Shown: positions 24,111 through 26,126 of the stretch, piece by piece
Layout: every line of letters begins with the position of its first letter
Numbering within the stretch: position 1 is the stretch's first letter
Assembly (NCBI GenBank): GCA_028715175.1
Contig: JAQUSJ010000001.1
Location: forward strand, 610,386-674,385
DNA length: 64,000 bases
DNA from: Candidatus Daviesbacteria bacterium
Lineage (GTDB): Bacteria; Patescibacteriota; Microgenomatia; Daviesbacterales; UBA10151
Direction of reading: 5' to 3'
The notes under the pieces: generated by a model
Databases searched by the model: none
What the model was told of the DNA's origin: nothing
What the model saw: only the letters and a program-made list of their open reading frames with translations
Translations under genes and position numbers: made by a program

Positions 24111-26126
24111 ATGTCAGCATCCAGCAAGTATTCTGCAGAACAAATTCAAGTCTTAGAAGGTTTGGAACCGGTCCGTAAAAGACCGGGTATGTATATTGGT
24201 TCAACTGATCTTCGCGGTCTTCATCACCTTGTTAAAGAGGTAGTTGATAACTCTATTGATGAGGCTTTGGCAGGCCATGCTAAAAATATCTGGACTATTT
24301 TGCATGAAGAAAATTATGTTACGGTTGCTGATGACGGTCGGGGAATCCCGGTGGAAATTCACCCAAAAGTCGGAGTATCTGCGCTTGAGGTTATTATGAC
24401 CACTCTTCACGCAGGTGGTAAATTCGGCGACGGCGGGTATAAAGTATCTACCGGACTACACGGTGTCGGGGTTTCCGCAGTCAATGCCTTATCAGATTAC
24501 TTAAGGGCAGAAGTCAGACGTGACGGCAAAGAGTATTTCCAGGAATATTCAAAAGGCAAAGCCAAAAGCAAAGTTACTCTCACTACCAAGGATACTAATT
24601 TACCTTTTAAAACAAATTTTATTTGGCAAGCAAAAAACGGCACTAAAACAACTTTTTTGGCTGATAAAACAATTTTTTCCACCATTACTCCGGATTTTGA
24701 AAAGTTAGAAAAACAACTTAAACAAGTAGCATATCTGGTAGCCGGAATCTTTTTCCATCTTTACGATGAAAGAACCGGACAGGAACGCCATTTTTATTTC
24801 CAATCCGGTTTGGCAACTTTAATTAAGCACTTAAACAGGAATAAAACCTTGATTCATCCAGAGCCGATTTTGATACACAAAGTGGTGGAAGGAATTGATG
24901 TCGAGGCTGCGATCCAATACAACGACGGCTTCAATGAAAACGTAGAGAGTTTTGCAAACGTTGTGCCCACCACAGAAGGCGGTTCTCATTTGACAGGATT
25001 CCGCATTGCTCTAACCCGTGCCATTAACGACTATGCCCGCAAAATTGAGGCCTTAAAAGAAAAAGATGAAAATTTAACCGGAGAGGATATCAAAGAAGGT
25101 TTAACAGCCGTTGTTTCCATTAAAATGGATTCTGACAAAATCCAGTTTGAATCGCAAACCAAAGAAAAATTGGGTAACGCGGAAGCGCAACCGATTGTGG
25201 CTCAGGTGGTCAAAGATGGCCTGGATATGTTTTTTGAAGAAAACCCTCAGGATGCCAGAAAAATCATGGAAAAAGTCCTGCTTGCTGCCAGAGCCAGAGC
25301 TGCAGCCAGAGCTGCCAAAGATGCGGTAATCAGGAAAGGTGCCCTGGAAGGAATGACTTTGCCCGGAAAATTGGCTGATTGTCAAAATAGGGATGCATCG
25401 CAGTCGGAATTATATATCGTGGAAGGAGACTCAGCCGGAGGCAGCGCCAAACAAGGACGGGATAGAAAATTCCAGGCCATTTTGCCCTTAAGAGGTAAAA
25501 TCCTTAATACAGAAAGGGCAAGACTGGATAAAGTCCTGGAGTTTGAAGAAATTAAAGCTTTGGTGATTGCTCTGGGAACAGGGATTGGAGATACGGTTGA
25601 TTACAATAAAACCAGGTATCACCGGATTATTATCATGACAGATGCGGACGTTGACGGGGAACACATCAGAACCCTGCTTTTAACATTTTTCTTTAGATAT
25701 TTACCTGAAATCATCAATAAAGGCTATATGTATATTGCCCAGCCTCCGCTTTACAAAGTTCAAAAAGGCAAAGAAATTCATTATGCCTATTCTGATGAAG
25801 AAAGAGATCAAATCATTAAAAAGTCGTCAGTCGTCAGTCGTCAGTCGTCAGACAAAACAAGTCTGAAAGCTGACAGTCCCGATGCAATCGGAACGAGTCT
25901 GAGGACTGATGGCTATATCATCCAACGGTATAAAGGTTTAGGAGAAATGAACCCGGATCAGCTTTGGGAAACCACCATGAATCCGGAAAACAGGATCTTA
26001 AAACAAGTGACTATTGAAGATGTTTCTGCAACAGACGAGGTCTTTACCATGCTCATGGGCGATGAAGTTCCTCCCCGAAAAAGATTTATCCAGACTCATG
26101 CTAAGCTCGCTACCTTAGATATATAA
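24111..26126 (+). CDS. gyrB: DNA gyrase subunit B
   Basis: It has the GHKL ATPase motifs ([18 protein letters not shown]), a Toprim domain ([24 protein letters not shown]) and [10 protein letters not shown]. It carries a roughly 90-nt in-frame repeat-element insertion at 25823-25912. Confidence 0.9.
25823..25912. repeat. NNNTCAG-heptamer palindromic element inserted in frame in gyrB (gtcgtcag x4 - aaaacaa - gtctgaaagctgacagtc...)
   Basis: It encodes [30 protein letters not shown] in the variable linker before the [10 protein letters not shown] box. Confidence 0.8.

Follow-up and report, generated by a model that had tools for sequence, protein, structure and literature searches.

Heptamer-armed palindromic repeats between genes and in frame within gyrB of a Candidatus Daviesbacteria genome

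The genome of a Candidatus Daviesbacteria bacterium (assembly GCA_028715175.1) carries a family of palindromic repeats whose arms are built from tandem 7-nucleotide (nt) units, and one full copy of this element lies in frame within an intact gyrB gene. We analysed a 64,000-nt stretch of this genome (contig JAQUSJ010000001.1, positions 610,386 to 674,385; G+C = 40%), hereafter the window, following up an original prediction that one and the same heptamer element is inserted in frame in gyrB, murD, gyrA and pilD in the manner of the Rickettsia palindromic elements (RPEs). That reading holds for gyrB, which carries a full copy, and less fully for murD, which carries half of one; it applies to the gyrA site but not to the gyrA sequence of this genome, which belongs to another repeat type, and it fails for pilD, where there is no insertion. 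The best explanation of these observations, and one that we consider likely, is a dispersed family of heptamer-armed palindromes, copies of which move within and between Daviesbacteria genomes and some of which have become fixed in frame in housekeeping genes. The element is probably RPE-like, selfish, and tolerated in surface loops.

The gyrB gene, its insert and the copies associated with gene ends in the window are as follows.
24111–26126, + strand: gyrB host gene (671 aa), an intact open reading frame (ORF) whose translation is 100% identical to a Candidatus Daviesbacteria GyrB (P0001), which places the organism in the Candidate Phyla Radiation (CPR)
25822–25913, + strand: full compound heptamer hairpin in frame in gyrB, recognised by its sequence, shared apex and fold
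19874–19953, − strand: full intergenic hairpin occupying the entire spacer from the stop codon of pilT to the start codon of pilC
47003–47081, − strand: full intergenic hairpin lying between the stop codon of yebC (TAG) and the start codon of ruvC, with the apex of the gyrB copy; z = −5.1
61678–61757, + strand: full intergenic hairpin immediately following the stop codon of a PA14-domain gene
63050–63129, + strand: full intergenic hairpin ending 4 nt upstream of the ATG at 63134
9470–9494, − strand: one-arm array CTGAAGA CTGATGG CTGACGG CTAG, which supplies the last codons of pilM and its TGA stop

Members of the family are palindromic, ~55–90 nt long, and end in the inverted sequences ATAGCT...AGCTAT. 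The 5′ arm consists of two to five TCAGNNN units (AGYNNTC in the other register) and the 3′ arm of NNNCTGA units, and between them the arms enclose a short AGAC/GTCT stem and an A/T-rich loop of 7–16 nt. The variable bases differ from unit to unit (TCG, TCA, TCT, CTA, CTT, CCA, ACG). Exact period-7 tandem arrays are strongly enriched across the window, with 8 found against 0.08 in dinucleotide shuffles, and none of the periods 8 to 12 is enriched by the same measure. The motif TCAGNNNTCAGNNNTCAG, which holds three TCAG cores at 7-nt spacing, has 23 matches in the window at no more than one mismatch, with 0.22 expected. The inverted pattern TCAGNNNTCAG-N8-38-CTGANNNCTGA has 13 matches against 0 expected, and these fall at five loci: 19885–19950, 25827–25873 (in gyrB), 47025–47078, 61684–61749 and 63057–63121.

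When folded as DNA and compared with shuffles, these copies form significant hairpins (z = −4.7 for gyrB, −5.1 for 47003–47090, −4.1 for 61672–61765 and −3.1 for 19868–19960). Sense and antisense strands do not differ consistently in stability, the sense strand folding better in 13 of 24 cases; this lack of asymmetry is consistent with a palindrome at the DNA level and lends no support to a strand-specific RNA role. Two candidate features of the family were rejected: a GCGAAGC mini-hairpin is present in several spacers, yet occurs 5 times in the window against 4 expected, and an A-rich loop in the transcript sense is true of the window copies but was lost in a larger intergenic sample (~8 versus 5).

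The gyrB copy has the layout (AGTCGTC)x4-AGAC-AAAACAA-GTCTGAAAGCTGACAG-19-nt spacer-AGTCTGAGGACTGATGGC. Its left arm, (AGTCGTC)x4 plus AGAC, occupies 25822–25853 and is followed by the loop (25854–25860), the first part of the right arm (25861–25876), a spacer containing a small inner hairpin (25877–25895) and the second part of the right arm (25896–25913). The 23-nt apex of this copy, GTCGTCAGACAAAACAAGTCTGA, is exactly that of the intergenic copy at 47039–47061 on the opposite strand, with 0 such matches expected by chance, and side by side the two copies are identical over 30 nt. By sequence, then, the gyrB insert belongs to the intergenic family, which bears out the core of the RPE-like idea. 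The copy folds at −21.2 kcal/mol, a stability reached by 0 of 200 shuffles, and its stems are almost perfect. Within 25822–25851, slippage of the four perfect 7-nt units by one unit would shift the reading frame, and three-unit changes alone would keep it; this perfect array is a frameshift hazard in an essential gene and raises questions about slippage control and selection.

The position of the insert in the protein is also compatible with the original prediction. The identities of GyrB and GyrA are backed by database and PDB matches, and against solved structures the GyrB insert appears as a clean break, with residues 139–170 of the C-terminal fragment falling between E. coli GyrB residues 555 and 733, the site of the E. 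coli insertion domain. Basal spacing with no insert is found in 71 of 119 GyrB orthologues; the other 48 carry 4–45 extra residues of many kinds, and the heptamer type occurs only in the window and in P0019, whose DNA (L083) contains a heptamer hairpin that is shorter but has an identical right end, GACTGATGGCTAYAT. In the closest relative, L081 (GCA_028712705.1), which is fully syntenic and has a GyrB 93% identical to that of the window, gyrB differs from the window's gene in a single non-homologous segment, the insert. The L081 gene contains at 11711–11820 another palindromic repeat, GTCATTCTGG...CCAGAATGAC, which encodes the peptide VILGSEATPE..DSGQARMTK.

Such inserts could in principle be produced by mis-joining of repeats during assembly, or could mark gyrB, gyrA and murD as decaying pseudogenes. 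The genome is indeed metagenome-assembled, and repeats are prone to misassembly; however, the ORFs are intact and full length, the sequences flanking the inserts are highly conserved, and independent assemblies from other samples show similar in-frame copies. Decay is further opposed by the lack of other gyrase genes in the window. We regard artefact or decay as very improbable.

Copies between genes and an empty site

The family is polymorphic between close relatives. Where the window has an 80-nt hairpin (19874–19953) between the pilT stop and the pilC start, L081 has 4 nt, and the flanks are 96–98% identical. In the sense strand the junctions read AAATAGC-TGT-ATGGAA in L081 and AAATAGC-TATCAGCG...GACGACTATTATT-ATGGAA in the window. 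In a BLAST comparison, the two 22-kb regions align throughout except for this hairpin, the inserts in gyrB and gyrA, and a few spacers that have diverged.

We scanned metagenome contigs with the hairpin pattern and obtained at least 120 matching contigs (L084–L203). Among the matches listed, at least 31 are low-GC contigs (0.36–0.47) with the same unit set as the window; at least 43 mid-GC and at least 46 high-GC contigs (0.64 or above) have TCAGACC, TCAGACG or TCAGACA units. Because the search pattern forces TCAG, the high-GC matches are no proof of homology. The mid- and high-GC contigs (e.g. L089, L103, L123) come mostly from soil samples, and their copies are almost all intergenic. The same pattern found no match in 2.9 million viral contigs. 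One copy, at 6780–6845 of L175, is a heptamer hairpin directly upstream of the 5′ end of a 16S rRNA gene, followed by AGAGTTTGATCCTGGCTCAG.

The intergenic copies are closely fitted to gene ends. Among the low-GC copies listed, the upstream ORF ends in a TAG that precedes the first TCAG by exactly 3 nt in 13 of 27, this TAG being the one within the terminal ATAGCT, and a start codon lies −1 to +14 nt from the last unit in 14 of 23. This placement could reflect a preference for TAGCT targets at gene ends, a selection filter in very short spacers, or function.

If function is the reason, the hairpins would be intergenic stop/start cassettes or sites of RNA processing or protein binding, and within genes they would be translational pause or regulatory structures at domain boundaries. 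The TAG and start-codon positions fit such roles, as do the still almost perfect stems of the gyrB copy, and the TAACTGA repeats of Beggiatoaceae, for which a translational role has been proposed, also lie just upstream of start codons (PMC4679880). However, L081 does without the pilT/pilC copy, its two genes being 4 nt apart; insert-free orthologues are common for both GyrB (as above) and GyrA (33 of 109); and sister genomes carry unrelated sequences at the same codon. Moreover, the sense strand folds no better than the antisense strand, no match in the window reaches the gathering score of any Rfam family, and any 80-nt insert tolerated in a short spacer would adjoin both genes anyway. Functional hairpins are thus, in our judgement, an unlikely explanation of the family as a whole.

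Coding copies and their reading frame

The architecture of the element restricts which copies can be translated. The 3′ arm of a standard copy has a TGA at intervals of 7 nt, and three units are enough to put a stop in every frame. On the opposite strand, the complement of the 5′ arm has this effect as well; a standard copy is therefore closed in all frames on either strand. Among the low-GC copies listed, 27 of 36 are closed in all six frames, and the coding copies are open in exactly one.

Coding copies avoid these stops in two ways. In gyrB of the window, gyrA of L081, atpA (L143) and dnaX (L107), a spacer of 7–33 nt follows the second 3′ unit, and the right-arm TGA offsets in such copies are 3, 10, 27, 34 or 3, 10, 39, 46, which occupy two frames only. 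All four are read in a single shared frame, SSV(V/I)S(R/H)Q(S/T)SD, and the stop-avoiding spacer explains this common frame because it leaves just one open. In fpg (L098), the third unit has CCGA for CTGA, so that the in-frame TGA becomes CGA; this copy has its own single open frame, which reads SSHQSSAISYQ. The spacer-bearing variant also occurs between genes, with an inner hairpin (L104), and coding-competent forms may therefore pre-exist.

The atpA, dnaX and fpg copies are in-frame copies in three conserved genes on the low-GC contigs listed, and they extend the RPE-like idea to ATP synthase alpha, DnaX and Fpg. The atpA copy lies just after the P-loop of ATP synthase alpha, the dnaX copy encodes KSSVISHQTSDSLTADSETDLKAEDS and the fpg copy encodes SSHQSSAISYQTKNKKSLTTDDRQLM. 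The peptide SRQ(S/T)SDK, which had been put forward as a protein-level signature of the element, is real in the spacer-type coding copies, and is so because one frame alone is free of stops. As a handle for database searches it is poor: when an extended insert peptide was used as the query, the matches were eight tiny ORFs made of (SRQSSVV)n, and GyrB itself was not among them.

The gyrA, murD and pilD segments

The four peptides named in the original prediction are all encoded as claimed, with small corrections to their limits: the gyrB codons run from 25824 to 25913 (not 25823–25912), and the 27 gyrA codons extend from 33825 to 33905 (not to 33900). The genes and segments outside gyrB are listed here.
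33204–35783, + strand: gyrA host gene, annotated start probably at 33219
33831–33928, + strand: in-frame insert in gyrA, a TCAG-rich non-heptamer repeat (Tandem Repeats Finder periods 8 and 10) with a weak hairpin, z = −1.35
29705–31105, + strand: murD host gene, 466 aa, with the Pfam domains MurD-like_N, Mur_ligase_M and Mur_ligase_C
30894–30929, + strand: half element in frame in murD, AGCTGTC AGCTTTC AGTCGTC AGACGTC AGACAAAA
17768–17797, − strand: one-arm (TCTTCAG)x4 array in frame in pilD (gene 17153–18073), in register with AAATTTN heptamers at 17727–17766

The gyrA insert of the window is built of units of ~8–10 nt and adds ~38 residues. In alignments to solved structures it too falls at a clean break, which corresponds to the step from residue 203 to residue 205 of B. 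subtilis GyrA, or from 202 to 204 in S. aureus, a site that is empty in bacteria outside the CPR and in L002. Its 21-mer GAAAACTCAGAAAAACTCAGA has no second copy in the window. This 21-mer and the right end of the insert, AATCTGGTACNCCGAGTYCTTCYGA, are both found again in another organism, within its gyrB insert (L204, P0030), which identifies the window gyrA insert as a second dispersed repeat type. At exactly the same site, gyrA of L081 carries a canonical heptamer element, (AGTCGTC)x4 AGA...GTCTGAAAGCTGAGAG-spacer-ACTGAAGACTGATAGC. The prediction of a heptamer element in gyrA is thus wrong for this genome and right for the very same site in its closest relative. The residues that flank the insert are near-identical between the two, and the insert is the sole non-homologous segment of gyrA.

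Sizing the inserts by anchor extraction among 109 GyrA orthologues showed that, apart from the 33 without one, 76 have inserts of 3–56 residues. Five are of the heptamer type, with the signature SSV[VI]S[RH]QSS, four are of the window's type and seven are of a type reading 'VIASEAKQS...PRNDN'. In a rough neighbour-joining order, taken from a tree that is not robust, the window GyrA groups with two carriers of the heptamer type, so its present insert looks like a replacement. Many GyrA and GyrB orthologues have other types of palindromic repeat in these gyrase loops. The flanking residues (e.g. ..SFxS before ATVEDL in GyrA) are common to all insert types, and this suggests that an older insert has been overwritten. 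Inteins (Pfam PF14890, PF14528) are present in GyrB or GyrA of L002, L004, P0012, P0039, P0156 and other relatives, and gyrA is broken by ~1.3 kb at residue 122 in L002 (18363–19702) and L004 (17493–18805); the gyrase genes of the window contain no inteins.

In murD, the segment comprises four TCAG units, which form a left arm, and the first part of a loop; it lacks a right arm and does not fold. The same piece is present in L081 murD with 21 extra nt nested inside it, and it is absent from the more distant L001, L004 and L082, in which the protein is 5–8 residues shorter here. From this sequence pattern we read the murD segment as a lineage-specific half element. The nested 21-nt piece in L081 (16880–16900) encodes (R)LPDGQA, and a similar peptide occurs in the GyrA inserts of P0139 and P0158, as expected of a very small dispersed repeat. 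A second small palindrome, TTAGGTGNCAACCTA...CACCCC(T)AGGGGTG, occurs twice in frame in murD of the window, at 30113–30165 and 30737–30770, where it encodes LGVNLSHPRGGQRTHPWKN and NLTSPLGC. Both of its copies are found in L081 and none in L001, L004 or L082, and the window contains no other good copies.

In pilD, the picture is different. The gene was identified by Pfam, and its product has 306 residues in both the window and L081. Alignment with L082 requires no gap at the array, and L082 has AAATTTN heptamers there in the same register; judged from this alignment, the pilD array is a replacement of units in a segment that was already heptamer-periodic, and not an insertion. Comparison with orthologues agrees with lineage-specific insertion, as had been proposed, at the gyrB and gyrA sites, which are empty in many orthologues, and in murD, but not in pilD, which has the same length as in L082.

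The window contains several other heptamer arrays with unrelated units. These include (AACTAYC)x5 in frame in trmD (6344–6378), (AATTGTA)x5 filling the spacer upstream of pilM (10531–10564), (TTCCGAC)x3.7 followed by (CGGTAGA)x4 (12416–12476), which forms the N-terminal tail of a 643-aa ORF at 10564–12495, and AAATTNN units in pilD (17727–17766).

These observations bring up an explanation that requires no mobility, in which the segments are lineage-specific, low-complexity linkers that grew in place by 7-nt slippage and resemble one another through a common mutational bias. Several unrelated period-7 units do coexist in the window (AATTGTA, CGGTAGA, AACTAYC, AAATTTG), the TCAG-type units of pilD replace AAATTTN in register without a change in length, and the murD and pilD segments have no second arm. 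In addition, heptamer repeats are over-represented in bacteria, with polymerase slippage proposed as the cause (PMC4692102). However, slippage leaves unexplained the inverted symmetry of the element and the non-repetitive apex that is exactly common to gyrB and to an intergenic copy 21 kb away. It likewise does not account for the same compound architecture in gyrB, gyrA (L081), atpA and dnaX, or for the fact that close relatives differ by an entire 80-nt hairpin, which one has and the other lacks. We therefore consider growth in place improbable as an account of the family.

Interpretation and comparison with known systems

Under the preferred reading, a dispersed and mobile palindrome family, copies would spread within and between related Daviesbacteria genomes, and most would survive in short spacers that run from a stop codon to the next start codon. 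A minority would become fixed in frame, either where the third TGA is shifted by a spacer after two heptamers or where it is changed to CGA. Such coding copies would persist only where extra residues are tolerated, as may be the case for the GyrB linker, the GyrA loop and the MurD stretch near the C-terminus, and they would add a Ser/Asp/Lys-rich segment that we take to be a disordered loop. Gyrase-type sites would turn over fast, with inserts replaced by other repeat types before the flanking codons diverge. We infer that the element is selfish; as to its mode of copying, our best guess is that an enzyme works on the hairpin in trans, or that one copy templates the repair of another.

Several points weigh against this account. 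Unrelated inserts occupy the gyrB and gyrA sites in many relatives, so insertion and the overwriting of an older insert are inseparable there. The arrays in murD and pilD are one-armed and could be produced by slippage alone. There is a single clean empty site, that at pilT/pilC, and it has no clear target-site duplication, at most AG (2 nt). The strict placement relative to TAG and ATG could indicate function rather than pure selfishness. No transposase or other mobilising enzyme turned up, although no systematic search was made. An AlphaFold2 model of GyrB built from an alignment of 65 close orthologues has a mean pLDDT of 56.7, and the insert cannot be placed in it; the intact ORFs and conserved flanks are what suggests that the host proteins still work.

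The family would have consequences beyond the window. Single loops of gyrase A and gyrase B are hot spots, occupied in most Daviesbacteria relatives by a repeat-derived peptide whose type varies among them, and this matters for annotation, for alignment and for phylogenies that use these marker genes in CPR genomes. No description of the element emerged from full-text literature searches that combined repeats with CPR, Patescibacteria or Daviesbacteria.

The GyrB site itself has a parallel in E. coli, where a 170-residue insertion domain lies at the same protein position, which shows that additional sequence can be accommodated there. Whereas E. coli has a folded and conserved domain, the window has a repeat-derived peptide of about 25–30 residues. 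Among mobile palindromes, REP sequences (repetitive extragenic palindromes) and their REPIN arrangements, which are mobilised by REP-associated tyrosine transposases (RAYTs), are likewise short, multi-copy, extragenic and located at gene ends (PMC3116915, PMC3733652); however, REPs are 20–40 bp long, carry a GTAG or CGTC tag and have a RAYT gene, whereas the Daviesbacteria element is heptamer-periodic and has coding copies, and no RAYT came to light for it, though no search for one reached beyond the window. For comparison with MITEs, which are miniature transposable elements with inverted repeats, the Daviesbacteria element has the inverted ends ATAGCT...AGCTAT and a duplication of no more than 2 nt (AG) at the single empty site.

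Tandem heptamer repeats, the short tandemly repeated repetitive (STRR) sequences, have reportedly been described in cyanobacteria, by Mazel in 1990 and by Elhai in 2008, with small dispersed repeats nested within them. STRR arrays can pair as hairpins, and smaller palindromes are nested inside the arrays. The Daviesbacteria element shares the heptamer period, the hairpin arrays and the nested pieces, in this case the gyrB spacer, the 21-nt piece of L081 murD that encodes 'RLPDGQA' and, in L104, the inner hairpin; the phylum and the unit sequences differ. We know of no report that places in-frame copies in gyrase or ATP synthase.

The Rickettsia RPEs and a few other families are established cases of palindromic repeats lying in frame, according to the accounts given in PMC10969869 and PMC3184786. 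As described by Ogata et al. (2000) and summarised in those two papers, RPEs are short dispersed palindromes of a small-genome lineage, are found both between genes and in frame in unrelated housekeeping genes, keep the ORF, and add a conserved element-encoded peptide, apparently at fold-compatible positions; the Daviesbacteria element resembles them in these respects, apparently also in the last. It differs in length (55–90 nt, against about 105–150 nt for RPEs in these summaries), in arms that consist of tandem 7-nt units, so that the standard copy is closed and only modified copies are readable, and in the reuse of its insertion sites, which are overwritten by other repeat types. Given the different host, length and heptamer architecture, homology to the RPE families is unlikely. 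The Daviesbacteria family would add an independent second case to the RPE phenomenon, like the first from a lineage with reduced genomes, and one with an unusually clear rule for read-through, the phasing of TGA in 7-nt units.

The Daviesbacteria element belongs to the same unit class as the TAACTGA heptamer repeats known from Beggiatoaceae, Cyanobacteria and Bacteroidetes (MacGregor 2015, PMC4679880). TAACTGA is an instance of NNNCTGA, and its complement, TCAGTTA, is an instance of TCAGNNN. Both kinds of array have stops in three frames one way and are translatable the other way, giving LSVISYQ for TAACTGA and SSVVSRQ or SAISYQ for the Daviesbacteria-type element, and both are mostly intergenic near start or stop codons, with a few ORF overlaps. 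In contrast to the Daviesbacteria units, which vary and whose arrays are inverted pairs forming long significant hairpins, the TAACTGA sets almost all consist of one fixed heptamer repeated directly; one inverted case is known among 170 sets, and no structure is predicted for them (PMC4679880). The ORF overlaps of TAACTGA are mostly at protein ends, an RNA polymerase beta-prime-like ORF being the exception (PMC4679880), whereas the Daviesbacteria copies lie inside conserved domains of essential enzymes. One could imagine that CTGA-core heptamer arrays are written or targeted by one machinery common to distant phyla and acting at stop/start junctions, with the inverted CPR form an intercistronic cassette that would keep stop and start codon together at the base of a stem, and the gyrase, ATP synthase and DnaX loops rewritten landing pads; we think this rather doubtful. 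Its hosts may include Beggiatoaceae, Cyanobacteria, Bacteroidetes, CPR and the mid- and high-GC soil bacteria with (TCAGACN)n hairpins. The link between the Daviesbacteria element and the CTGA heptamers of other phyla suggests a wider phenomenon.

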